Shown here in pieces: positions 5,712-35,988 of a stretch of 64,000 nt of DNA. The notes beneath the pieces are model-generated. The model was not told where the DNA came from, did not search any database, and saw only the letters and a list, made by a program, of their open reading frames with translations. Position 1 is the first letter of the stretch, and each line of letters begins with the position of its first letter. The translations under genes were made by a program, and so were the position numbers. The stretch is from contig JAJDVZ010000157.1 of NCBI GenBank assembly GCA_022825835.1, forward strand, positions 50,322 to 114,321, given 5' to 3'. This DNA is from Candidatus Latescibacterota bacterium (GTDB lineage Bacteria > Latescibacterota > UBA2968 > UBA8231).

Positions 5712-5840
5712 TTGAAGCGGCCTTTCAAAGAGGTGTTTGTTAATCGCACTTCGTTATTTTCGCACAGAAAGTGGACGTACTACGCGGCTGTTTCAGCACT
5801 GAAACAAGCGAAAGGGCAAGGGATTTGCAAGCTGGCAGGA

Positions 5841-6260
5841 TCACCCTACGAATGACTCCTCGCCTCTTTCCTTCTGTTTCTGCCTTATCTCGGCGATTTC
5901 TTCGCCTGTCAGACGTTCTTCGTCCGTTACAATAGTTTGTTCGATGAGTTCCAACTTCAATTCCCGGTTAGTCAGCCACTCCCAGCGATCGGCATTTGCC
6001 GGGTGGGGATGGGGATACACATCCTCAGGCCCAATGTCATCGGAGACGACATAGAGATAACCGGGCGTGACGCCGTTGTGCTTAATTCTGAGTTTGTCAG
6101 ATAGAGACTCCCCTTCGTCAGACATAGAAACAATTGATGGTCTATGCGAGAACGCTTTCGCCACATTTCTATTCTGTGTGATCGAACTCCCGACCCGCAG
6201 TTTCGTCAGCTCTTCCTGAGAGCCGTGATACCACGTAAGGCTGTAATCGCAGTTTGGCAT
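5841..6260 (-). CDS. hypothetical protein (139 aa), first gene of the A/T-richer patch
   Basis: Clean ORF. Its ATG overlaps (TAATG) the stop of the relic FMN-reductase 3' end. It has an N-terminal WYHGS motif but belongs to no family I can name. Confidence 0.55.
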   Translation of the reverse strand: MPNCDYSLTWYHGSQEELTKLRVGSSITQNRNVAKAFSHRPSIVSMSDEGESLSDKLRIKHNGVTPGYLYVVSDDIGPEDVYPHPHPANADRWEWLTNRELKLELIEQTIVTDEERLTGEEIAEIRQKQKERGEESFVG

Positions 6261-6372
6261 TAGATTTCCCAGTCCGATCCATAGGACCGGTTCTTGAGTC
6301 GCTCCGCAAGTTCGGTCAGTGCAGCTAGAGGCCTGTTTAATCTTGCCGTCGTTGCGTCGTCGAGTTCGCCTT
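6260..6372 (-). repeat. relic copy of the 3' end (36 codons plus stop) of the FMN-reductase gene; direct repeat of 9967-10079
   Basis: Hand alignment to 9967-10079 is ungapped over 113 bp with 9 mismatches. It encodes GELDDATTARLNRPLAALTELAERLKNRSYGSDWEI* and is closed upstream by an in-frame TAA (6371-6373). Confidence 0.85.
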
Positions 6373-6420
6373 ACTTAATCCAATTGCCGTCATCAAGATA
6401 TCCCTGCTCATACTAATGGG

Positions 6421-7473
6421 TTACGAATACCCCAACATATATAGGGATTCAATGAGTAGCTGCACCCGGTGTTCATCACTAACACCATCCCATGTGGAGC
6501 AAAGTACCTCGAACGCCTTCATGGATACTTGGATTGGCACTGCAATGTCGTCCTCGATTTTATTATCCGTCAGTCCTTTGAATAGGTCTCTGCTTATCTC
6601 AAGGATTACATCGCTTACGGCCTCCTTCGTAAGGTTCCCGAGAATTCGCTCAAGTGACCGAGCCGTTGCGGACGAAACCCAGAGATTCACGGTATCTGAA
6701 TCTACTGGCTCACTTTGAACTCGAAAGTAGTATAGATTAGGATCAGTTGGTGAAGGAACATCGAAATACGGCTGGATCTTTATCCCAGCAGAGGTTGTAA
6801 CTGAATATCTCTTTTGATGGGTATCGCGTTCATAGATCCATAGACTCTTACTTCCTTTTCGGGCACCTCGCGGGGGCGTCTCGTTCCATTCAGCATAGAA
6901 GTCGGTGACATTCAACTTGCTGAGCCGTTGCTCAAAATACATGAACTCCCTCAATGTATTTTCCCACAAGAGCCACCCGATTCTCATATCCGGTTTCACC
7001 TCTGGTGCGCTCTTTCGCACATTCTCCGTCCTCTCATCAATGAGCGAGTTGTACTGCTCAAGCACATCCTGCATGACGGTATCCGCAGATTGGTCAACAT
7101 CTTCAATACGTATAGACCTTGTAGCAGACGGATGCATAAGTGTAGTACCACAAAAAGTTCTTATGGAACGTCCTCTTAGATTGCTACAGCGGAGCAATTT
7201 CTGTTCTACTCCAAGTCCCGAATGTATGACATCTATATTGAGATTGCTCCAACCGGTCTCAGGGATACCCTTCGCAAGACAGTAGACAGAGGTCCAATCT
7301 CCTTCCTCCATCTTTCGACCCATCATCGAAGCCACTTGCGTGGCAAGCCGTATTTTTGCATTGAGGGCTTCTTCGTCAGTGAAAGCCGGCAAGGTTGCAT
7401 TATGGTTAAGGTGAATCACTATCTCTGCACTCCAGTACTTCAAATGCGATCTCACGAAATGTAGAGAAGTCAC
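6421..7473 (-). CDS. candidate type II restriction endonuclease (PD-(D/E)xK)
   Basis: 350-aa ORF directly downstream of the DNA MTase. It contains NIDVIHSGLGVEQK (D-x8-E-x-K). The start is uncertain: GTG 7473 overlaps the MTase by 68 nt, with alternatives GTG 7419 and ATG 7326. Confidence 0.5.
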   Translation of the reverse strand: MTSLHFVRSHLKYWSAEIVIHLNHNATLPAFTDEEALNAKIRLATQVASMMGRKMEEGDWTSVYCLAKGIPETGWSNLNIDVIHSGLGVEQKLLRCSNLRGRSIRTFCGTTLMHPSATRSIRIEDVDQSADTVMQDVLEQYNSLIDERTENVRKSAPEVKPDMRIGWLLWENTLREFMYFEQRLSKLNVTDFYAEWNETPPRGARKGSKSLWIYERDTHQKRYSVTTSAGIKIQPYFDVPSPTDPNLYYFRVQSEPVDSDTVNLWVSSATARSLERILGNLTKEAVSDVILEISRDLFKGLTDNKIEDDIAVPIQVSMKAFEVLCSTWDGVSDEHRVQLLIESLYMLGYS

Positions 7474-9553
7474 TAAGTTCGTGATCCCTCACAAGAGCGT
7501 AACTCATCCACTCACTATAAAGAAATTTGTAATCAATCTCCTCTGACCGTGAAACATGAAGGTAAACTGTAGTAGGTACTCTTCCTCGATAATCCTGAAG
7601 GAAGTCACGTATCGATTCATTGAGTGAGAGACTAGGTGGCTGATGAGTAGTTTCGACAATGTCTCTTGTCTTTTTACAATGAATTACGAGGTCACAGCCG
7701 GCAGTGTTAGGACTGACGAACTGCTTAAATGTCGAATGCTGTTTGTCAAAGATGTCTGCTCGCTCTAAGGTAAATCCTGCTGCACGAATGGCTCTCTTTA
7801 GCTCTTCCCACACTTTGGCCGAGCTATTCATGAATATGAGCAGCATCCAATGCTCTTTGCGTAGAACTCGATGACATTCTGTTAAACTTCTCTGCATCAG
7901 CTCGCCATATTCATCTATGCCTTTTCCTTGAACTCGGTTGATGATTGCTTCATCACTCGGATCTGTAAACTCCCCAAGCCAAGATTCCCACAAGATGTTC
8001 ATCTCCGAGTAGTTGATATTTGCACCGAACGGCGGGTCTGTGAATACAAAATCTACTGATTCATCTGGGATACAACTCATTTCAGTCGCCGATCCACATA
8101 CAACAGCCTTCTTGGCCGTGTATTGGGTCGCCGTTGTTTCGATATGGTCGAGTATGTTTTCGGCTTTTCTACGAAAGGTCATAAACACATTTGCTTCGTT
8201 AAAAATAAAGGGTACGTTGAAGCGGGCCATGTTACCACTTCCACCCCAAAACCTGTACTCAGAGAGACGTGAAACCCTTTGATAAAGAGAGGTAAAAACA
8301 AAGGCCATTGCCGATGCAACTTCGATATCATCGATGCAATGGATTGCCCGCCATATCTGGCTTAGAGCAGCCAGATTTCTAGTTGTGTAAAAGGAGTCAA
8401 TAGAGGTTAATCCATGACGTTTCGGCTGATTCAGATTGACACCATCAGGCAACTCCGTGGTCGGAATATAACCAGTGGCGAAAGGCGCTTCTGCCTCAAT
8501 CTCAGCGATTCTACCAATATCCGCGTCGCTCGGTGGATGCTCGCGAATTTCATTCCTACAGCATTTGTAGCCGACTATAACAGGTTCTGCGTAGGTACGC
8601 GGGAGCTTCTTTTTTTGTAAAAGCTCTCCACATATAGGGCAATGAAAAGCAGCTAGAATCTTGTGTTCTCGAACGGTACGACCGTACTTGCGACTGTGAT
8701 CCCAAAGGATAAACTCAGCATCACAGCAGTAGCAATTCACCCTATAAGACCAAACGAAATAACTAGCTTCCACCGGACGTCCACATTCGCGGCAGTCAGT
8801 ACTGTATAGCCATTGTCTTAGATCAGCCAAGGAGTCCATGATTTCGTTTAGAGCCCCAACGAAGAGATCGGGATCCACTATTTCAGTGAAGTTGTGAGCG
8901 ATGAAGCATGCTGCAGGCGACAACTCATTTAGGATCACGTCGTGGCCGCTGATTCTAGTAGCTACGCCCGTCATGCCACTACCCGCAAATGGGTCCAACA
9001 CCAAGCCACCGTCGGGCAGATAGTGGTTGAGAAATTCCACGATACCTTGCGGTGGAACCTTAGTATGGTAAGTGTGGGCGTCATAGGTGTAGGTATTTTT
9101 TCCAGCACTAGCCCCAGTTGCCACTGGTTTTGCTGGAGTCTGAGCCGGCTGCAGATTACTAAGCAGCACGGACTGAAGAGATTCGGGCGAGCCGATCACG
9201 TCGCCGTTTCTCAGTCGTTTGAGTATTGGAGGATTTGGCGTTGAAAGTCGGCAGACCTTAGGTGTCTTCAAGAACAAATTCATCTGAGAGGTCTTAAGTG
9301 CTCGACGAGTAGCTCCTTTTGAGAGGAAGGCTTTCGACACGTCGGTTGGTCTCCGGTTAGCAGAGGAAAGAAGGTCTTTTATATGCTTCGACTGCTCTAT
9401 TGAGGGTTGGCCAACGCCGCGAGCCCACCGATCAATGGTTACAAGAGAGACCCCAAGCACCTGTGCGAGATGGGCAGGACTCATTGAGAGCGAGTCCTGT
9501 ATCGTCTGGAGTTGCTCCGCAAGTTCTTGGGGCGAGTTATTTGTGTTCTTCAC
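7406..9553 (-). CDS. site-specific DNA methyltransferase (N6-adenine or N4-cytosine) with N-terminal HTH domain and Cys-rich insert
   Basis: Motif I-like LVLDPFAGSGMTG lies upstream of motif IV FTDPPFG (I-before-IV order). N-terminal HTH: MSPAHLAQVLGVSLVTIDRWARG. Cys clusters: CRECG..CYCC and CPICG..CC. The likely start is GTG 9553, preceded by AAGAGGA; the track ORF extends to 9694. Confidence 0.8.
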   Translation of the reverse strand: MKNTNNSPQELAEQLQTIQDSLSMSPAHLAQVLGVSLVTIDRWARGVGQPSIEQSKHIKDLLSSANRRPTDVSKAFLSKGATRRALKTSQMNLFLKTPKVCRLSTPNPPILKRLRNGDVIGSPESLQSVLLSNLQPAQTPAKPVATGASAGKNTYTYDAHTYHTKVPPQGIVEFLNHYLPDGGLVLDPFAGSGMTGVATRISGHDVILNELSPAACFIAHNFTEIVDPDLFVGALNEIMDSLADLRQWLYSTDCRECGRPVEASYFVWSYRVNCYCCDAEFILWDHSRKYGRTVREHKILAAFHCPICGELLQKKKLPRTYAEPVIVGYKCCRNEIREHPPSDADIGRIAEIEAEAPFATGYIPTTELPDGVNLNQPKRHGLTSIDSFYTTRNLAALSQIWRAIHCIDDIEVASAMAFVFTSLYQRVSRLSEYRFWGGSGNMARFNVPFIFNEANVFMTFRRKAENILDHIETTATQYTAKKAVVCGSATEMSCIPDESVDFVFTDPPFGANINYSEMNILWESWLGEFTDPSDEAIINRVQGKGIDEYGELMQRSLTECHRVLRKEHWMLLIFMNSSAKVWEELKRAIRAAGFTLERADIFDKQHSTFKQFVSPNTAGCDLVIHCKKTRDIVETTHQPPSLSLNESIRDFLQDYRGRVPTTVYLHVSRSEEIDYKFLYSEWMSYALVRDHELSDFSTFREIAFEVLECRDSDSP

Positions 9554-9709
9554 GTCGCGTCCTCTTCGTCGTTCAGATCGAGTACCCAGCAGTCGGTCGG
9601 CGGCCAGCCGATGCAGATGCGGTCGTCCGCCAGCTCGGCACTGTGCCCGATAATCTTGGCGATCTTGGCGATGAAATCCAAGCACGCACAACACGATTAG
9701 GCATAGAAA

Positions 9710-9738
9710 AACATCAGAGACAGAGCTACTCTGATGTT
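9710..9738 (-). terminator. candidate intrinsic terminator downstream of the FMN-reductase gene and upstream of the MTase
   Basis: Perfect 10-bp inverted repeat aacatcagag / ctctgatgtt with a 9-nt loop. On the minus strand it is followed by a TTTTTC run. Confidence 0.4.
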
Positions 9739-9966
9739 AGGAACGTACTCGCTCGCTGATTTTTCAATAACGCTTTTTTTTGCGGAGGACGCAATAGCTT
9801 CTCTAGGTAGCTATACGTCTTTTGACACGCTGTCCTCAGTACATGACAGTAGTCTAAGTTGAGGTGCAGCCTTGATTTAGGTTTATTTATCATTACTCAG
9901 CTACAAATAAAGTTGGTTATGGATCGTACCCATTGGCAATTTGGTCACACCGATCAGAATGTGAAA

Positions 9967-10542
9967 TCAAATTTCCCAATCCGATCCATAGGACCGGCTC
10001 TTGAGCCGCTCCGCAAGTTCGGTCAGTACAGCTAGAGACCTGTTTAATCTTGCCGTCGTTACGTCGTCGAGTTTGCCTTCCGCCCAACTGTCGCCGTGGG
10101 CATACACGTTATACGGGCTGATAATGCACTTGAAATCCAGCATGAGGGATGTTGCCAGCGACGTAAACGCCATATAGCTGTGTGGCAGCCCGCCCGCATT
10201 GACGAACATCACTATTTTGTCGTAGAAAGCTCCTTTGAGCGACCCGTCTGGTGGCGTAGAGCCTATATATTCGACAAACTTCTTGAGTTCAGCGCAACAC
10301 GCCCAGTTGTACACTGGGCTCGCCAAGATGACGGCATCAGAGGCCGCAATGATTCTGTGGCACGATTGATACGCCTCGGATGAATAGATCTCGTCGTTGT
10401 CGAAATTTGGCGGATCGAGTTGTCGAAGATCGATGAAGCCAACAGAGATGCCCTTGTCCTCCAGAGCGGTCCGACACATGATAGCAAGCACCCTACTGTG
10501 ACTGTCGGGATCGAGACTACTGCTGACGACTGAAATTCTCAT
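9967..10542 (-). CDS. NADPH-dependent FMN reductase family protein
   Basis: 191 aa with a flavodoxin-like N-terminus MRISVVSSS and ILASPVYNW. Its last 36 codons (9967-10079) are duplicated at 6260-6372. Confidence 0.75.
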   Translation of the reverse strand: MRISVVSSSLDPDSHSRVLAIMCRTALEDKGISVGFIDLRQLDPPNFDNDEIYSSEAYQSCHRIIAASDAVILASPVYNWACCAELKKFVEYIGSTPPDGSLKGAFYDKIVMFVNAGGLPHSYMAFTSLATSLMLDFKCIISPYNVYAHGDSWAEGKLDDVTTARLNRSLAVLTELAERLKSRSYGSDWEI

Positions 10543-14733: not shown

Positions 14734-15720
14734 CTACAGCGGCTTGGCCACGGCTAAGCCCGTGCCGACTGCTGACACGCGATTCCATCCCGACCCTCTG
14801 AGACCGGCGTAGATCATGTAATAGGTCCCATTGATCGCGAACACCTGTGGGGTCAGGAGGCCGTCGCAATCCCAGGCATCGGCATTGGCCGCAGGTGTGA
14901 AGATTGGGTTGTGTGGGTTGGGTTCGAAGGTGCGGAAGTCGCGCGTGCGGACGTGCCCAATGGTCCAGACCTTGCCGTCGTAGCCGCCGTAGAACAGATG
15001 GAAGTAGCTTGGCCCTTTGAGGATTTCTGCTTCGCGCACGCCATAGCGGTCCCACGCCTGCCCTGAGCCGGAAAATACGGGATTGGCGGGATTTTTGGTG
15101 ACTTGCGCCGGGTCGCTGGTCGGTGCGGTGGCATGGCAGATGGTCGGCACGTTGTAGAGAATATCGCGCCGTTCAGGAGGAGCTGGCGACTCGCCGGTAT
15201 AGACCATGTGAATCACATCGCCCGACACGGCTACGGATGGATGGGAAGAGCCGTGTTGCTCGTGCGCGCCGCCGACGGCAACTACTGGTGCATTGCTAAC
15301 CCGCGTCCACGCTCCGAAATCGCCGTCGCTGACTAGCAGGCCGGTCTGTTTGCGGCGGGGCTTGTCCTTGCCTTGGGTGCCGAGATAATAGGCGTAGTAG
15401 CGCTGGTCGGCGGGATTCCAGAACGGGAATGGGTATTCCACGCCGTGATTGTCGAATCCGTCGGCGGAAGGTAGCAGTATGGGATTGCGTTGGTCGTGCG
15501 TTACCGCCGTAGGGTCGGCGACCGGCGCGGAGCTGTGCATGTGTACCCAGCTACCATCTCCTCCTTTTTTGGCCCACAGATAATGCACAGTATCGTCCAC
15601 GACGATGGCGTGACTGGCAGCGGCCCACGCGGGTGGCGCGCAGTACAGCAGCGGCTTCTCGGCGGTGAGCCGCTCGAAGCGGGCGAATGCTGCGAATGGG
15701 ATTGGGGCGTTGGGATTCAT
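14734..15720 (-). CDS. beta-propeller glycoside-hydrolase-like protein (GH43/GH32/GH130-type fold; family not resolved)
   Basis: 328-aa ORF. Its first ~27 codons (PIPFAAFARFERLTAEKPLL) are repeated at 20011-20063 and 21251-21336. Confidence 0.55.
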   Translation of the reverse strand: MNPNAPIPFAAFARFERLTAEKPLLYCAPPAWAAASHAIVVDDTVHYLWAKKGGDGSWVHMHSSAPVADPTAVTHDQRNPILLPSADGFDNHGVEYPFPFWNPADQRYYAYYLGTQGKDKPRRKQTGLLVSDGDFGAWTRVSNAPVVAVGGAHEQHGSSHPSVAVSGDVIHMVYTGESPAPPERRDILYNVPTICHATAPTSDPAQVTKNPANPVFSGSGQAWDRYGVREAEILKGPSYFHLFYGGYDGKVWTIGHVRTRDFRTFEPNPHNPIFTPAANADAWDCDGLLTPQVFAINGTYYMIYAGLRGSGWNRVSAVGTGLAVAKPL

Positions 15721-15740
15721 AGCGGTTTGCTAGGTGATTA

Positions 15741-16940
15741 TCAACTCGTCATCAAGTTGACGTAGTCCAGTACCCCCGAAAAGCCTCTGCTTCCATAGGG
15801 CACCAGGGCACCCGGCAAGTCTCCCTCTGCGACAAGAGCGCGCAGCAGTTCGCTGTCGGACGCTCGGCGTACGGTTGTGAATCCGTCTTTCTTAACCAGC
15901 CAGAAGCTCTCGTCGAGTTCTGCTCCGTTTAGAAAATCGGGAGAGTGGGTCGAAACGAATACTTGGCCGCCACGTCGAGCGTAGTCCCGAAATTCCTCGG
16001 CCAATTCTATTAGCAATTCGGGATAGAGCTGGTTTTCGGGTTCTTCGACTGCCAGCAACGGATGGGGTTTTGGGTCATACAGCAAGACGAGATAGGCGAA
16101 CATCTTGATCGTACCATCGGAGACATAGCGGGCAATGAATGGGTCCTTGAAGCTGCCATCCTGAAAGCGCAGGACGAGACGCCCGTCCTCTGTTGATTTG
16201 GATTCAACGCCGCTCACGCCTGGGACTCGCTGGCTCATAGCTTTCAGCACTTGATCGAAGCACTCGCGGTGATTCTCGTAGAGGTACTGGGCCACTTGGG
16301 CGACGTTATCGCCACGGTTAGACAGATGCTCGGCATAGCCGGCCTCACTGCTTGGTCGGGCGTCGGCAATGTGGAAGTCCGAGACGTGCCAGTTCTCGAT
16401 CAGGCTGCGGAATTCCGAGACGACTTGGAACTCGCGGAACTGGCCCAAGCCTTTGATCGCGAGGACGCTCGGGTCGTCGAGCTTGTACTCCGCTCTCTTT
16501 TCTTTTACTTGTTCCTGACCATAGACTGATTCATTTGTGATTGCAGTTCCGATTCCGCCTGAGAAATCAACGAAATGCCAAGGGCGTCCAGACTGCTCTT
16601 TACGGTAGTGCAGTACTTCGCGTTCAACCGAGACTCGGCCATCCTTCGCTGCTATTTCGAGTTCGTAGATGGCTAGACGGCCGCCGCTCTCACGGAATTT
16701 GATGGTGATCCCAATGGGCCCATTTTCGCCTCGACTGACCAGTTCGCGGAACCCGCCGCGTTGCGCCACCGCTGTGGTGACGTTCTGGGTCAGCGCGTCC
16801 TTGAGAAAGCTAAACACGTCGAGTAGAGTTGACTTGCCCGTGCCGTTCGCGCCCACGACTACGACCATTGGGGGTAAATCATCAAACACGACGTGGCGGA
16901 AGGAACGGTAGTTTTTGATTTCAATCTGCTCAATCCGCAT
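15741..16940 (-). CDS. ABC-type AAA_15/AAA_21-like ATPase (OLD/PtuA/AriA-like ATPase module, no nuclease domain)
   Basis: 399 aa with Walker A GANGTGKST, Walker B LLAVEEPENQLYP and H-loop VSTHSPDFL. A GGAGAA SD sits upstream. Its last 7 codons lie in the repeat shared with copy B. Confidence 0.85.
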   Translation of the reverse strand: MRIEQIEIKNYRSFRHVVFDDLPPMVVVVGANGTGKSTLLDVFSFLKDALTQNVTTAVAQRGGFRELVSRGENGPIGITIKFRESGGRLAIYELEIAAKDGRVSVEREVLHYRKEQSGRPWHFVDFSGGIGTAITNESVYGQEQVKEKRAEYKLDDPSVLAIKGLGQFREFQVVSEFRSLIENWHVSDFHIADARPSSEAGYAEHLSNRGDNVAQVAQYLYENHRECFDQVLKAMSQRVPGVSGVESKSTEDGRLVLRFQDGSFKDPFIARYVSDGTIKMFAYLVLLYDPKPHPLLAVEEPENQLYPELLIELAEEFRDYARRGGQVFVSTHSPDFLNGAELDESFWLVKKDGFTTVRRASDSELLRALVAEGDLPGALVPYGSRGFSGVLDYVNLMTS

Positions 16941-17004
16941 AGGTTATTTCTCCGTATTGTCGAACATTACCGTTGAGCTGGACCGGCTGCTCCGTTGGCG
17001 GCTA

Positions 17005-17709
17005 TCACGATTCATCGAGTGACCGGCGAAGGGTCGCGGTCAATTTCTGACGGAAATCGTCGTCATTATCCCTAGACTTAGACCAAATAACGGTCGTGCA
17101 GTGATTCGTATCGAAGTGGGTTCCATCTTTGCTCTCAAATTTTTCCTTTTCGCAAATATAGATGACAGGCTTGCCTAGACCCTCTGCGTAACCAGCCTCC
17201 CAGTACGCGCCATTGTTGCCGTGAGTAAGATCGGCAATGACGAACTTCGCGTCTCTGATTCGGACGCGCATGATATTGTCGATGATACCCGCCTTTGGGA
17301 CATCACGCATATCAACTAGACTGCAGCCAATATCCTCTTTCACCGCCGGTTTCACAACCTCCCGAACAAAGGATTCGAGATCGTCATCGTTGAACTGCAT
17401 GGCGAGGAAACCGTAATTTCCAGCGAACTCACCTCGTTTTTCCGCTTCGTACTGTTTCCATCCGGCAAGGGTAAGGTTTACATTCGGAAATCTCGGCCCG
17501 AGTGTCTCTTTGCTAGGTTCTCCCATTATTATGAGGTCGTGTTCATACAACTCTTTAATGAGTTGCTTGGCCAATTCCTCACTCGGAGCACCAATCTTCT
17601 TGCTGATTCTGTCAATATGGGGGATTGGTTTGCCTGATTCCGATACTTGGTCTCCAATATATCGAATGAGATTCATCGCCTGCACCGCAGGACTTGTGAA
17701 TTCGCTCAT
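17005..17709 (-). CDS. wHTH-like N-terminal domain fused to a nucleoside 2-deoxyribosyltransferase/TIR-like (SLOG-superfamily) domain
   Basis: FLAMQFNDDD...KFVIADLTHGNNGAYWEAGYAEGLGKPVIYI matches the NDT-family signature. ATG 17709 has an AAGGAA SD; the alternative ATG 17748 overlaps the MTase gene end. Confidence 0.65.
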   Translation of the reverse strand: MSEFTSPAVQAMNLIRYIGDQVSESGKPIPHIDRISKKIGAPSEELAKQLIKELYEHDLIIMGEPSKETLGPRFPNVNLTLAGWKQYEAEKRGEFAGNYGFLAMQFNDDDLESFVREVVKPAVKEDIGCSLVDMRDVPKAGIIDNIMRVRIRDAKFVIADLTHGNNGAYWEAGYAEGLGKPVIYICEKEKFESKDGTHFDTNHCTTVIWSKSRDNDDDFRQKLTATLRRSLDES

Positions 17710-17734
17710 GTCGGTTCCTTTTGCTAAGAGTGGC

Positions 17735-19995
17735 TTATTCGCATCCATTCGCTAGGTTAAGTGCCAGCAGTTTTCCTAACGACTCGTCCTCCGAAATACC
17801 TGCATCCCATCCATAAGCCGACGCCACAGCCGCGTCGAGAGTCGCGTGTGCATCCTTGAGCCATTGAGGGCGGGCGTTGTACAGATTGGTCAGCGTCCGC
17901 TTCTTGAGTTCCTTTGCCACCGCTTCGTCTCGTGGAACCGGACACTTGGGATAGCCGGGCACCGGCTCGTCCACCCATTCCACCCATTCGGGCGGGTTGA
18001 GCCAGCGGTCGCGCAGTTCGACTAGTCGCCGTGCTGCTTCGGCGATGGCAACGGCACGCGGATCACTCGCGTAATCCGAAGCCGGAATGTCGGGCGACAA
18101 CCCTTCTGGGAAGGGGAAGGTCTCGAAGGTGGTGGTCGGCGTGTAGCGCGGATCGTTGCCCTTGCCGAGCCATGTGCAGAGCCGCAGCGACCATGCCTCG
18201 TGGAAGCGACTGTGCAGGATGCCGAAGGTGGTGTCGTCGTCGCGGGCGATGACGATCAGTTGGCAGTCGGGATAAATCCGGGCATCAAGCCACGCGAACA
18301 GTCTGTGCTTGGCAACGCGCGGCGTGGCGATGTAACGGGGCAACACGCCAATATTTTTGAACATGTTCTGTCCTGACCGGTCGTGTCTCCACCATAGGTC
18401 CCGCAAGTCCTCGCGATTGTTCTCGTCCCTTGTAGGCTTCACGTGTTCGAGGATGTGCGCGAACGGTGTCTCGTAAAGTGCGGCGTCAGCTTCGCTTGTC
18501 TTATGTCCAAAATCGACAATCCATTTGCCAGCAGGCCGACGAGTCACATCCATACCGTTGAACCATGGTCTCAGAACATCGGCGTTGGGACGCCCGTTTG
18601 GATTCGCGGGCAGACATAGCCATTCTCTAGCCAGATCTCCCGGGACGTCGAAACGCCCCTTCTTATAACCACCGATAAATGCCGTACGTCGGTTCCGTGG
18701 CAACTTACCCGCTTTCGTAAGATCGGCAGGCTCAGCGGTAAGATCAGCGTTGATCTGGAACACGTCGCCTCCGTCCAGACGCGCCGATAATCCGGCTTCC
18801 TCAGACGCGAAACATATCAACGAGACCCTCACGTCGGCACCATCAACTACCCAGGGTTCATCGGACCAAGCATCGAAAATCGCTGCCTGTTCAACTATCC
18901 GGTCAAGTACTGTTCGATTCTTCCCTCCTCTAATCGAATTCGTGGCGACGAGACCGGCGCGAGAGATCTTTCCCCGATCTACTAGTTTGCCTCCCTTATG
19001 GAACCAGTAGCAGACGAGGTCGGCGGAGGCTGGAATGGCGTTGGTGTAGCACCGGCGCAACTTATCAGTATAGTCGCCGCCGAGGACTTCACGCATGGGC
19101 GAATAGCCTAAGAACGGCGGGTTTCCGATCACCACGTCGGCTGCCGGCCATTCCGGTTCTTCGCCGTCTGGGGTCAGGATCGCATCGCGGCATTCGATGG
19201 TGTCGAGCGGCTTGAGGACTGGATTGTTCGTCCCAGGATAGCCGTTGCGTCGCATCCACTGGATATGTCCGATCCACACTGACACGCGCGCTAATTCGGC
19301 GGCGTAGGCGTTGAGCGAGCCATGGCGGCGAACTCCTCCGGCTGCTGCCGCGCCTGCTCCAACATCCGCGTGAACATATTGTTCGGCAAAAGGCCCACGT
19401 CTTCGGCGAACATGCAGAACACCAGCCGATTGATGAAATGCGCCACCGCCTGCGGGTCATGGCCGCGTTCTCGCAAGGCTTGTGCCAGCAACGCAAAGGC
19501 CGAGGCCGCCCGCTCGGTGAGCGCCTGCCGGGTCTCGTCTGGCCGCAGCCGCTCAGGGTCGGATAGTGCCCACTTGAGCTTGTCGCGGACAGCGGCATCG
19601 GCTAAATCGTCGATCTCGAATTCGTGGGTCTTGCTGACGCTGTTGGTCCAATTGGTGCGGATGCGGAACTGCCGCATGTCGGAGACGATCAAAAGCGGCG
19701 GGTTTTCCAAAGCCAGCGCGTATTGCCTAAGTTGGTCAAAGGCCGCGTCTAAGTTGGCACGCGGGCCCTTGTACTCCCAAGCGAAGCAGTGTCGCTTCCA
19801 CACGTCGGCCCAACCATCGCCGCCGGTTTCCTTGCGAGCACCCTTCTCAAAGCAGTACGTATCGCCGGTAGGGTCGGCCTCGGCCGGGGTTGGCTCGCCG
19901 AGCAGCCGGCACAAGTCGATGAAGTGCTCCTGAGCAGCCGAGCTTTCCTTGAGTTCGACGGCACGCCACTTGGTAATGAATATCTCTGGAGTCAT
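17735..19995 (-). pseudogene. MmeI-family (type IIL-like) restriction/N6-adenine methyltransferase gene, split by an internal out-of-frame deletion
   Basis: The N-terminal ORF (19291-19995) has DVWKRHCFAWEYKG (PD-ExK-like) plus a helical connector. The C-terminal ORF (17735-19285, different frame) starts at NAYAAELARVSVWIGHIQW and has motif IV VIGNPPFLG. No AdoMet motif I (DPxxGxGxF) occurs in either ORF. Confidence 0.7.
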
Positions 19996-20010
19996 GGTGC
20001 TACGGTCACT

Positions 20011-20103
20011 AGCCGCTTGAAGCGGGCGAATGCTGCAAATGGGATTGGGGTGTCGGTCTGCATAGCGGCTACTAGGTGATCATCATCTCGCCACCAAGCT
20101 GAA
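20011..20103 (-). repeat. copy B of the hydrolase-gene 5' end plus ~40 bp of its upstream region
   Basis: Hand alignment to 15668-15761 shows one 1-bp indel and about 15 mismatches. It encodes the relic MQTDTPIPFAAFARFKRLV. Confidence 0.8.
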
Positions 20104-20109
20104 TGACAG

Positions 20110-20640
20110 TTACCTATTCAGCACCTTTTCCTGAAACTGCTCGTACGCCTCATATACGTCTTCTGGATCGGGAACAACCGGCATTGTGCGAATCCGACCG
20201 TGTGCATACCAATTCCGAAACCCGAAGTATCCCTTGGTCACCGAGCAAACCCGCCGAAACGCCTCGTCGATGTCTCGGAAACATTCTCGTAACTTGTCGA
20301 AGATCCGCTCAAGGGGAATCCGCCTACACGCCTGAGTAGCCTGTTTGCCAACTTGACGGGTCTCACGGCGATATTCCGCACACAGATCGCGATACGCTCT
20401 GCTTACTCTATCGCGCTTTTTTCGTTATAGAGATACGAGAAAATCCTCTCGGATACCTGCCTCCAAGAGCGTAAGGAGCTTGAACGCGTAGTCCTTGCGT
20501 ATCTCCTCAAGCAGGTCGGCACGAAACTCATCGCGCTCAGTCGGTGTGAAAGATTCGAAATGCTCGTCGCCGAGGTCGCGCACATTTTGTTGGAGCAAGA
20601 CGTACCATTCGAGGAGCGAATCACAAGTGAACTCGCTCAT
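20110..20640 (-). pseudogene. HEPN-like (R-N-W-Y-A-H) protein gene interrupted by one in-frame TAA (20425-20427)
   Basis: The frame from ATG 20640 reads 71 codons to a TAA, then stays open for 104 more codons to TAA 20110-20112. The second half contains GYFGFRNWYAHGR (an Rx4H motif) and no internal ATG. Confidence 0.65.
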
Positions 20641-20642
20641 TT

Positions 20643-21107
20643 TTACTCTTCTAGGAACTCAGCTAGAAATTCCTCTAAGGTGCTTTTATTGAATTCCCAC
20701 CGTGTAGGTTTCCCGTATCTACCCTCTCTCTTCGCAAAGTCCCACTCGTCATTTCCTTTATGCAGCAGCATTGCGAGCAGGGTGCTGCCCGAGATCACAT
20801 CGACTCGCCCTTGAGTACCTATAATAAAACGTCCGACTGGTCTGAGGGTGAGTATCTGGCTATCTAAAAAGATAAGTCGTAGAGATTGGGCTTCGTAATC
20901 TCCAAGCTGGTCTTCCCGAATCGGAATATTCTCTGACTGGATTTCCAGCCAGTTTTTGTCTTTAAGAGGCTGTAACCACTCAGCTATCTTCGACATGAGC
21001 TTTTCGCAGTTGGCTATCCATTCCTGACGAACTGCTACATGTTCAAATTCCGACGCTTCCTGTTGTTCTTGTTTCTGCTTCAGTATGTCCTCAAGTAGTT
21101 TGGCCAT
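20643..21107 (-). CDS. hypothetical protein (154 aa), upstream operon partner of the HEPN-like gene
   Basis: Strong SD (AAAGGAGAG) before ATG 21107. Its stop lies 2 nt before the HEPN-like ATG. I recognise no family. Confidence 0.65.
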   Translation of the reverse strand: MAKLLEDILKQKQEQQEASEFEHVAVRQEWIANCEKLMSKIAEWLQPLKDKNWLEIQSENIPIREDQLGDYEAQSLRLIFLDSQILTLRPVGRFIIGTQGRVDVISGSTLLAMLLHKGNDEWDFAKREGRYGKPTRWEFNKSTLEEFLAEFLEE

Positions 21108-21250
21108 TTATATCTCTCCTTTGCTGCAATTTGAACGAGATATTGTCTGCCGTCCAAGACCGAGACCGCACGGTTAGCGGTAAGGCAGTACGCTTTCTCA
21201 ATATCCGACCGATTGGATTGCTTCGCAATGGTCGGACCGCCCCCCAGCTC

Positions 21251-21336
21251 GCAGTGCAGCAGCGGCTTCTCGGAGGTGAGTCGCTCAAAGCGGGCGAATG
21301 CTGCAAATGGGATTGGATAGTTGATCGTCATAGCGG
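21251..21336 (-). repeat. copy C of the hydrolase-gene 5' end (27 codons)
   Basis: Ungapped hand alignment to 15640-15725 with about 12 mismatches in 86 bp. It encodes MTINYPIPFAAFARFERLTSEKPLLHC and then diverges. Confidence 0.8.
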
Positions 21337-21445
21337 CCTGCTTGAAGCGAGATTGGCGACTGGGTAGATTGACTGAATGAGGTTGTCCAACATATCACGC
21401 GCCCCGCACTCGTTCAAGCCACCTAAAAACCCAAGGAACCCTCCA

Positions 21446-35901: not shown

Positions 35902-35988
35902 TGGTGCGAAAGGGGGGACTCGAACCCCCATGCCCTTTCGGGCACTAGATCCTAAATCTAGCGCGTCTACCAGTTCCGCCACTTTCGC
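35902..35988 (-). tRNA. tRNA-Leu (anticodon UAG), CCA encoded
   Basis: Folded by hand from the minus strand. 7-bp acceptor stem GCGAAAG/CTTTCGC. Anticodon stem CTAGA/TCTAG with loop TTTAGGA. Long variable arm TGCCC-GAAA-GGGCA. T arm GGGGG-TTCGAGT-CCCCC. The 3' end is ACCA. Confidence 0.9.

Follow-up and report, generated by a model that had tools for sequence, protein, structure and literature searches.

Neighbouring genes for a HEC-01 ATPase and a deoxyribosyltransferase-like protein in a Latescibacterota defence island probably stem from two different defence modules

Do two adjacent genes in a bacterial defence island, one for an ATP-binding cassette (ABC) ATPase and one for a protein resembling a nucleoside 2-deoxyribosyltransferase (NDT), form a new defence system, or do they simply share an address? 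The question is raised by a stretch of 64,000 nucleotides from a Candidatus Latescibacterota bacterium (contig JAJDVZ010000157.1, positions 50,322 to 114,321), called here the window. The original prediction took the ATPase for a sensor and the NDT-like protein for an N-glycosidase effector; such a pairing would have been an ATPase-effector architecture new to the defence catalogue. The analysis described here does not support it. The ATPase belongs to a catalogued candidate system, HEC-01, whose usual partner is a different protein, and the two genes are quite probably neighbours from two different defence modules within a decaying island, that is, a case of module stacking in a hotspot. The pair comprises the following features:

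15741-16940, minus strand: ATPase open reading frame (ORF), 399 residues; HEC-01 family ABC ATPase (AAA_21/AAA_15), intact save for a frameshifted C-terminal tail.
17005-17748, minus strand: NDT-like ORF, 247 residues; an internal ATG at 17709 gives 234 residues.
17005-17709, minus strand: real extent of the NDT-like gene, 234 residues; winged helix-turn-helix (wHTH)-like N-terminal domain and NDT/DNPH1/TIR-like C-terminal domain; intact.

The basic description of the pair was confirmed. The two ORFs run in the same direction with 64 nucleotides between them, and good Shine-Dalgarno-like sequences precede both start codons (AAGGAA ahead of the ATG at 17709, GGAGAA ahead of the ATG at 16940). 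The quoted motifs are also present: Walker A (GANGTGKST), Walker B (LLAVEEPENQLYP) and VSTHSPDFL in the ATPase, and KFVIADLTHGNNGAYWEAGYAEGLGKPVIYI, which had been quoted for the NDT-like protein.

The ATPase and its missing partner

Profile searches bore out the assignment of the ATPase to the ABC type found in OLD, PARIS and Septu systems (Pfam AAA_21, 2.4e-32; AAA_15, 6.7e-24). Judged by its match to PADLOC models, the 399-residue protein is the ABC ATPase of the PADLOC candidate HEC-01 and as such already catalogued: PDLC04144 aligns with residues 1 to 380 at E = 6.9e-173, and a second HEC-01 model, PDLC04182, reaches 2.8e-125. HEC-01, or 'Hma-embedded candidate 01', is composed of an ABC ATPase and a TOPRIM protein (Payne et al., bioRxiv 10.1101/2024.01.29.577857). 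The ATPase family has more than 8000 matches, is about 80% identical across phyla, and has a canonical length of 391 residues.

The usual partner of this ATPase is a protein containing DUF4276, a TOPRIM nuclease domain homologous to Mad4. For the three homologues whose gene context was examined, a DUF4276 gene of about 175 to 190 codons always comes next, starting at or just after the ATPase stop codon, and in canonical homologues at about 80% identity the ATPase stop and DUF4276 start codons overlap. One such pair lies inside an Hma system, in the order SNF2 helicase, DUF1156 methylase, ATPase, DUF4276, DUF499. Metagenomes present the same picture. Contigs were scanned with the window ATPase; out of at least 559 ATPase loci, the analysis took the best 80. 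DUF4276 lies directly downstream of the ATPase in 74 of the 75 loci with at least 500 nucleotides of downstream sequence; an NDT-like gene lies upstream in 1 of the 55 loci with room for one. The ATPase of that single locus (L090) is 93% identical to that of the window and comes from the window's own lineage.

The original prediction had remarked on the lack of a nuclease gene beside the ATPase. This is correct: tblastn with four DUF4276 proteins (E <= 10) gives no match in the window. The cause, however, is a deletion. With the same kind of search, the gene was found in related Latescibacterota loci, where it follows the orthologous ATPase directly and is preserved to varying degrees. It is intact in L001 and L076, whose DUF4276 proteins match PDLC04143, the PADLOC model paired with PDLC04144, at about 1e-58. 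It is frameshifted in L005 (9941-10494, two high-scoring segments in different frames), and in L002 it is reduced to a stub of 81 residues, through which the ATPase ORF extends to 507 residues (8774-10297). Finally, nucleotide alignment reveals that it is absent from the window, L003, L004 and L013 with a single common deletion junction; nothing in the window corresponds to the DUF4276-containing L005 segment 9929-10514. Because DUF4276 follows the same ATPase in these relatives, whether intact or decaying, the missing TOPRIM gene of the window is a secondary loss by deletion. Two lesions mark this end of the ATPase gene:

15726-15772, minus strand: deletion scar at the expected site of the DUF4276/TOPRIM gene; junction common to L003, L004 and L013.
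15797-15812, minus strand: 8-nucleotide tandem duplication (GGTGCCCT twice), through which the ATPase tail is put out of frame; seen in a nucleotide alignment with L003, L004, L013, L005, L001 and L076.

The duplication is found in the window alone among these loci. From the residue after ...LPGAL onward it replaces the canonical ATPase end (...LPGALWKQRLFEG...), so that the conserved ...LWKQRLFEG... after LPGA is lost. The HEC-01 profile match ends at position 384 of 395 in the window ATPase and covers positions 1 to 395 in the L001 orthologue, consistent with a frameshifted tail. By itself, the window ATPase may be non-functional or at best an orphaned sensor. As the lesions in L013, L005 and L002 suggest, decay of defence cargo appears to be common in these symbiont genomes.

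A point of nomenclature concerns the HEC-01 models. In PADLOC-DB v2.0.0, the labels of one pair are judged to be swapped because PDLC04143, labelled 'HEC-01A', matches DUF4276; PDLC04144, labelled 'HEC-01B', corresponds to the ATPase. The swap is relative to the paper that described HEC-01, and the remaining HEC-01 models are labelled in the opposite way to this pair.

Adjacency and history of the two genes

From the side of the NDT-like gene, one genome per GTDB species was scanned. This yielded 466 NDT-like loci from many phyla, including many metagenome-assembled genomes of sponge symbionts, and the best 80 were analysed. In 7 of these 80 (L001 to L005, L013 and L076), the NDT-like gene is followed by the window's ATPase. 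All seven have common flanks, with a sulfatase gene on one side and a GH130-like gene, then genes c6 and c5, on the other; because of these shared neighbours they are, on gene order, one hotspot in one lineage. None of the remaining 73 loci has another AAA_15/21 protein as an immediate neighbour. Thus, among the loci analysed, whether counted from the NDT side or from the ATPase side, the two families adjoin only in this one Latescibacterota hotspot lineage. Two of the outcomes that the original prediction had named as refuting it have in essence come about.

Within that lineage, the ATPase and the NDT-like gene have separate, discordant histories. Between the window and L005, synonymous divergence (dS) of the ATPase is 0.29 and that of the NDT-like gene 0.05; between the window and L076, the ATPase has a dS of 0.36 and the NDT-like gene one of 1.0. 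The NDT-like proteins are anywhere from 58% to 100% identical, yet the ATPases next to them stay at 92 to 94% identity (82% in L002). In L013, the NDT-like gene (8001-8669) carries an internal stop and the ATPase is intact.

Under the reading that two modules have been stacked in one hotspot, the first module would consist of an MmeI-like type IIG restriction-methyltransferase and the wHTH-NDT-like protein as its accessory, and the second of the HEC-01 ABC ATPase with its DUF4276/TOPRIM nuclease, related to Mad3/Mad4, AbiL and PARIS. Several observations weigh against it. The NDT-ATPase adjacency recurs in nine Latescibacterota loci, L090 among them, with 59 to 68 nucleotides between the genes where both ORFs are intact, while the other cargo varies, and three of these loci (L002, L004 and L013) keep both genes without a type IIG gene. 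Purifying selection on the ATPase (omega about 0.09) persists even between loci that lack DUF4276, so the orphan ATPase may still do something. When a representative of HEC-01 itself was assayed, it did not protect against the phages tested (Payne et al., bioRxiv 10.1101/2024.01.29.577857). In addition, the argument draws on the best 80 of the 466 NDT-like loci and the best 80 of the 559 or more ATPase loci.

Some of these observations would suit a lineage-specific coupling, in which the NDT-like protein was recruited to the HEC-01 ATPase, either as a third component (NDT-ATPase-DUF4276) or as a replacement effector after loss of the TOPRIM protein; the ATPase would sense and the N-glycosidase execute. 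This is in essence the model of the original prediction, confined to a single lineage. Such a coupling would account for nine adjacent, co-directional gene pairs with the spacing given above and for the persistence of the pair where type IIG is missing. It would also fit with dN/dS values well below 1 for both genes (0.07 to 0.15 for the ATPase against its orthologues) and with retention of the ATPase after DUF4276 was lost. However, all nine loci trace to one insertion site and therefore count as a single evolutionary event, and in the loci analysed other lineages lack the pairing on both sides of the comparison: their ATPases go with DUF4276, and their NDT-like genes have no such ATPase beside them. 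The unequal divergence of the two genes, the broken NDT-like gene next to an intact ATPase in L013, and the frameshifted ATPase tail in the window also speak against a working partnership. We consider coupling unlikely. Module stacking remains the preferred explanation, and it carries a caution for guilt-by-association screens, since what looks like a novel pairing can arise when a defence island loses genes.

The NDT-like protein and its restriction-modification neighbours

If the ATPase is not the partner of the NDT-like protein, what kind of protein is it, and with what does it associate? Alignment of 38 homologues places the real start at MSEF (17709), giving 234 residues. The family is large, unnamed and highly conserved (4935 matches in 90% clusters and 6348 representatives of 50% clusters, E <= 1e-3). 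Of the pair, the ATPase is in PADLOC as HEC-01; for the NDT-like proteins, none of Pfam, NCBIfam and PADLOC has a dedicated family. Pfam Nuc_deoxyrib_tr matches residues 157 to 203 of the window protein at 4.3e-5 and 24.1 bits, below the gathering score of 28.8 bits, and many homologues at 65 to 89% identity have a precomputed PF05014 match. No PADLOC candidate-system model matches the protein. Most members of the family are longer, at about 320 to 335 residues, because of an extra N-terminal CxxC...CxxC Zn-ribbon, which the window protein lacks. Homologues on plasmids are 26 to 33% identical and have no consistent gene context. Two loci on unrelated replicons, L011 (8001-13754) and the Hymenobacter plasmid NZ_CP043647.1 (L171, 5710-9284), encode a large NACHT-domain protein downstream of the NDT-like member on the same strand; on the plasmid, a recombinase gene lies between the two.

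The claim that a wHTH-like region is fused to an NDT/TIR-like domain was upheld by structure prediction. An AlphaFold2 model built from a 57-sequence alignment (mean pLDDT 86.8) contains an N-terminal domain of three helices plus a wing (residues 1 to about 95), followed by an alpha/beta domain at the C-terminus. From the modelled topology, the N-terminal domain appears to be wHTH-like; the sole supporting match is the LexA DNA-binding domain, at a non-significant E = 1.1 in a PDB sequence search. Otherwise, PDB sequence searches with two profiles returned nothing meaningful (best E = 0.1, unrelated proteins; L37a Zn-ribbon, E about 0.5). Going by the model, the C-terminal domain has the flavodoxin-like fold of the NDT/DNPH1/TIR group. 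Foldseek against the PDB gives nearly equal scores to the TIR domain of SARM1 (6.2e-4, the top match), a cyanobacterial NDT (7.9e-4) and human DNPH1 (8.3e-4), and against BFVD it finds a viral CMP/hydroxymethyl-CMP hydrolase (2.4e-7) and a viral NDT (2.0e-6). Together, the sequence motif and the viral fold matches favour the NDT branch over TIR.

Across 57 diverse members, E171 (in GAYWEAGYA), G173, G177, F199 and D200 are invariant, and D144, D160, H198, N202, H203 and K180 nearly so; an HFDTNHCT motif is an additional invariant feature. We take the D160-x10-E171 spacing and the GKPV motif to be DNPH1/NDT-like, and the pattern [DE]-x10-E-x-G-x-A-x3-GKP presumably resembles the nucleophile region of DNPH1/Rcl and NDT. 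The glutamate of AYWEAGYA, E171, is thus a putative nucleophile; the protein most likely acts as an N-glycosidase.

The recurrent neighbours of the NDT-like gene are of another kind. A seed-based tblastn search within 1.5 kb, which gives a lower bound, places a restriction-modification gene near the NDT-like gene in at least 32 of the 80 genomic loci. In 27 of them it is an MmeI-like type IIG gene, nearly always upstream on the same strand and typically 10 to 40 nucleotides away, or about 300 nucleotides where the Zn-ribbon extension is present. Other arrangements involve other enzymes. In L068 and L069, a type I operon has the NDT-like gene within it (HsdM-HsdS-NDT-HsdR); in L009 and L012, it follows an N6_N4 methyltransferase gene; and in L027, it lies between genes for two large N6_N4 methyltransferase proteins. 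In L068 (4935-11914), the NDT-like stop codon overlaps the HsdR start by 4 nucleotides. The NDT-like gene outlives its neighbour, as indicated by L014, L022 and L040, where the upstream type IIG gene is reduced to a C-terminal stub.

The window conforms to this pattern. Its NDT-like gene lies 25 nucleotides downstream of a type IIG gene, the canonical arrangement that recurs across many phyla, and the type IIG gene is itself broken into two ORFs of 234 and 516 residues in different frames:

17735-19285, minus strand: type IIG C-terminal fragment, a pseudogene, with part of the methyltransferase domain, the target recognition domain (TRD) and the C domain.
19291-19995, minus strand: type IIG N-terminal fragment, made up of the MmeI_N nuclease domain and the first part of the helicase spacer; deletion junction at 19314/19315.

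Across the two fragments Pfam finds all five MmeI domains with their order kept: MmeI_N and MmeI_hel on the N-terminal fragment, and MmeI_Mtase (profile positions 138-247 only), MmeI_TRD and MmeI_C on the C-terminal one. The PADLOC model REase_MTase_IIG matches the C-terminal fragment at 5e-150 over profile positions 557 to 1022. Compared with L005, the window lacks the equivalent of 5813-6398, a frameshifting deletion of 586 nucleotides at junction 19314/19315 that removes residues 228 to 422 of the intact 947-residue L005 orthologue, including the S-adenosylmethionine-binding motif I, DPACGSGNF. The type IIG gene of the window is a pseudogene. When window 17735-19995 is aligned with L005 5132-7975, the N-terminal 227 residues are 99% identical and the C-terminal 516 residues 73% identical; this contrast suggests, from the sequences compared, recombination or swapping of the specificity domain in addition to the deletion.

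Three lesions had thus been absent from the original prediction: the frameshifted ATPase tail, the broken upstream type IIG gene and the deleted TOPRIM gene. The intact ancestral state would have had the type IIG enzyme with its NDT-like accessory beside a HEC-01 ATPase-TOPRIM module; in the window today, the NDT-like gene alone would be clearly intact.

The linkage of the NDT-like family to restriction-modification genes is the only potentially new element here. It was not found in PADLOC v2, Pfam, NCBIfam or the searchable literature; in that literature, reports of NDT-like proteins in phage defence all concern retrons, and none links MmeI with a deoxyribosyltransferase. Tentatively, and with rather less confidence than we have in module stacking, we suggest that the family, which occurs with MmeI-type IIG, type I and type II systems, serves restriction-modification as an accessory or second-line module not yet catalogued, an N-glycosidase that would act on nucleotides or DNA bases if restriction fails or is evaded. 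In such a scheme, the wHTH domain, together with the Zn-ribbon in most homologues, might bind nucleic acid or a phage cue, and the NDT-like enzyme would serve restriction enzymes as their second-line partner, cleaving either bases in DNA or nucleotides, whether dNMP, a modified dNMP or, like the retron-Eco1 effector, NAD+/ATP. Hydroxymethylated dNMP precursors, which phages use to escape restriction, are a candidate substrate. The accessory would then resemble the retron-Eco1 effector, coupled instead to restriction enzymes, and in the Latescibacterota lineage there may be an additional coupling to the HEC-01 ATPase. If the protein is an N-glycosidase coupled to restriction, effectors of the NDT type would not be confined to retrons, and the locus type would offer a testable layered system, with attack on nucleotides as the backup to restriction. 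Two published lines support an N-glycosidase by analogy: a preprint proposes that the retron-Eco1 effector, which is NDT-like with a wHTH domain, defends by depleting adenine and its derivatives, and an earlier comparative-genomics study predicted that NDT domains fused to Abi N-terminal domains are toxins acting on DNA.

The position of the gene, immediately downstream of or inside restriction operons, would also be expected of a regulator or addiction factor. The NDT-like protein would then not be an immune effector; in restriction-modification cassettes it would bind DNA in the manner of a controller protein, or bind nucleotides in the manner of an antitoxin. Its wHTH-like N-terminal domain would suit such a role, as would survival of the gene when type IIG decays, both in the loci with stubs and in the window with its internal deletion; one NDT-like protein, PsyrA, has reportedly been described as an antitoxin. 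Conservation of E171, D160, D144, H198, N202 and H203 in the 57 members, however, points to catalysis over DNA binding alone, and in about 60% of the 80 loci no restriction gene could be detected in the vicinity. A regulatory role is thus rather improbable.

Least probable of all is that the NDT-like protein is a housekeeping enzyme of nucleoside or nucleotide salvage (NDT, DNPH1 or LOG-like) that is found here by chance. The weak Pfam Nuc_deoxyrib_tr match and the name given to distant plasmid homologues by the NCBI annotation pipeline PGAP ('nucleoside 2-deoxyribosyltransferase') would be in keeping with this, but little else is. The gene is low-GC (guanine-plus-cytosine) cargo of an island; the family is spread patchily over many phyla at 50 to 80% identity and carries extra wHTH and Zn-ribbon domains; its linkage to restriction-modification genes is strong; and on plasmids its neighbours include integrase, recombinase or NACHT genes.

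The island and its relation to known systems

The locus is a defence island. It occupies a chromosomal hotspot between a sulfatase gene and a GH130-like gene in a sponge-type Latescibacterota genome. GC content is 0.48 to 0.50 in the NDT-like gene and 0.545 in the ATPase gene, compared with 0.60 to 0.64 in the flanks. The proposal that the insert is delimited by repeats held as far as the flanking is concerned, but there are three copies of a 96-nucleotide direct repeat, not two. The repeat derives from the 5' end of the GH130-like gene, and its three copies bound two cassettes, one with the genes u154 and u71 and the other with type IIG, NDT-like gene and ATPase:

15636-15731, strand not assigned: direct repeat copy 1 (repeat search), overlapping the 5' end of the resident GH130-like gene.
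19979-20074, strand not assigned: direct repeat copy 2 (64% identity), at the boundary between u154/u71 and the type IIG-NDT-ATPase modules.
21247-21342, strand not assigned: direct repeat copy 3 (84% identity), at the far island boundary; it encodes a duplicate of the GH130 N-terminus.
20425-21107, minus strand: second island cassette, two small genes of 71 residues (20425-20640) and 154 residues (20643-21107).

Short segments homologous to repeat copy 2 also flank modules in L004, L005 and L013, and the order of the cargo differs among related Latescibacterota genomes with the same flanks (L002 to L005, L013 and L076); in L003, for example, the type IIG gene comes after the ATPase. No integrase was seen near the island, and tRNA-linked integration was rejected, since the sole tRNA is a tRNA-Leu at 35902, 14 kb away. 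Rfam families gave no match between 12 and 24 kb of the window (E <= 0.1). A scan for promoters and terminators across the island found signals at or below chance level, and these were of no help with operon structure.

The u71/u154 cassette is bounded by repeats, has a low GC content (0.48), and is 91 to 97% identical in L005 and L076. Pfam, PADLOC and NCBIfam profiles give no matches to either protein; the gene pair may be a small defence or toxin-antitoxin module. About 6 kb from the island, a gene at 7406-9694 (minus strand) encodes a protein of 762 residues with an N-terminal XRE-like helix-turn-helix and a split N6_N4 methyltransferase domain (Pfam, 3e-14); this may be a methyltransferase that stands alone as an orphan, or it may belong to a further restriction-modification system.

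Comparison with known systems places the parts of the island as follows. HEC-01 is the closest relative of the ATPase module: the HEC-01 ATPase model covers nearly the whole window ATPase, and orthologues in the hotspot carry the matching DUF4276. The window differs in that it has no TOPRIM gene, has lost the last 11 positions of the ATPase profile, and holds the module outside any Hma system.

MADS (Mad3/Mad4), PARIS (AriA/AriB) and AbiL (AbiLi/AbiLii) use the same ABC ATPase clade and the same logic of pairing it with a TOPRIM protein, and in the window an MmeI-like methyltransferase of mad2 type is encoded next door. Even so, the identities MAD3, AriA and AbiLi were rejected for the ATPase on score. 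MAD3 (NCBIfam NF047739) scores 123.6 bits against a cut-off of 420; PARIS AriA (6.1e-31) and AbiLi (by PADLOC score) are far weaker matches than HEC-01, as are the PADLOC models for NsnB and mad3; and no AriB-like (DUF4435 TOPRIM) ORF lies beside the ATPase in the window.

The type II-A effector of retron-Eco1 (Ec86) resembles the NDT-like protein in combining NDT-like and wHTH domains in one polypeptide and in having a putative NDT-like active-site glutamate. In the window protein the domain order is reversed, with the wHTH N-terminal, and the partner is a restriction enzyme instead of a retron. PADLOC retron effector models have no detectable match to the protein. A reading as a retron effector was rejected, as there is no reverse transcriptase ORF nearby and no msr/msd RNA among the Rfam searches described above.

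DNPH1/Rcl, the MilB-type CMP/hydroxymethyl-CMP hydrolases and NDT (PF05014) are the best fold matches of the window protein. The motif [DE]-x10-E-x-G-x-A-x3-GKP is, we assume, common to the NDT-like protein, DNPH1/Rcl, MilB-type hydrolases and classical NDT. In contrast to these enzymes, the window protein stays below the Pfam gathering threshold, and its family has the extra wHTH, Zn-ribbon and HFDTNHCT motif.

TIR NADases (Thoeris ThsB, CBASS TIR and SARM1) may share the fold, with the SARM1 TIR domain as the top PDB match but NDT and DNPH1 close behind, and among PADLOC models the CBASS 'Effector TIR' reaches 5.8e-10, with ThsB marginal at 0.0019. They differ in that no Pfam TIR or TIR-like family matches the NDT-like protein, and the window has neither ThsA nor a cyclase nor any other signalling partner.

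Finally, the type IIG gene is akin to MmeI-family type IIG/IIL enzymes, with the five MmeI domains in their usual order over the two window fragments. It departs from them in the 586-nucleotide internal deletion, through which the segment with motif I is gone and the frame shifted.

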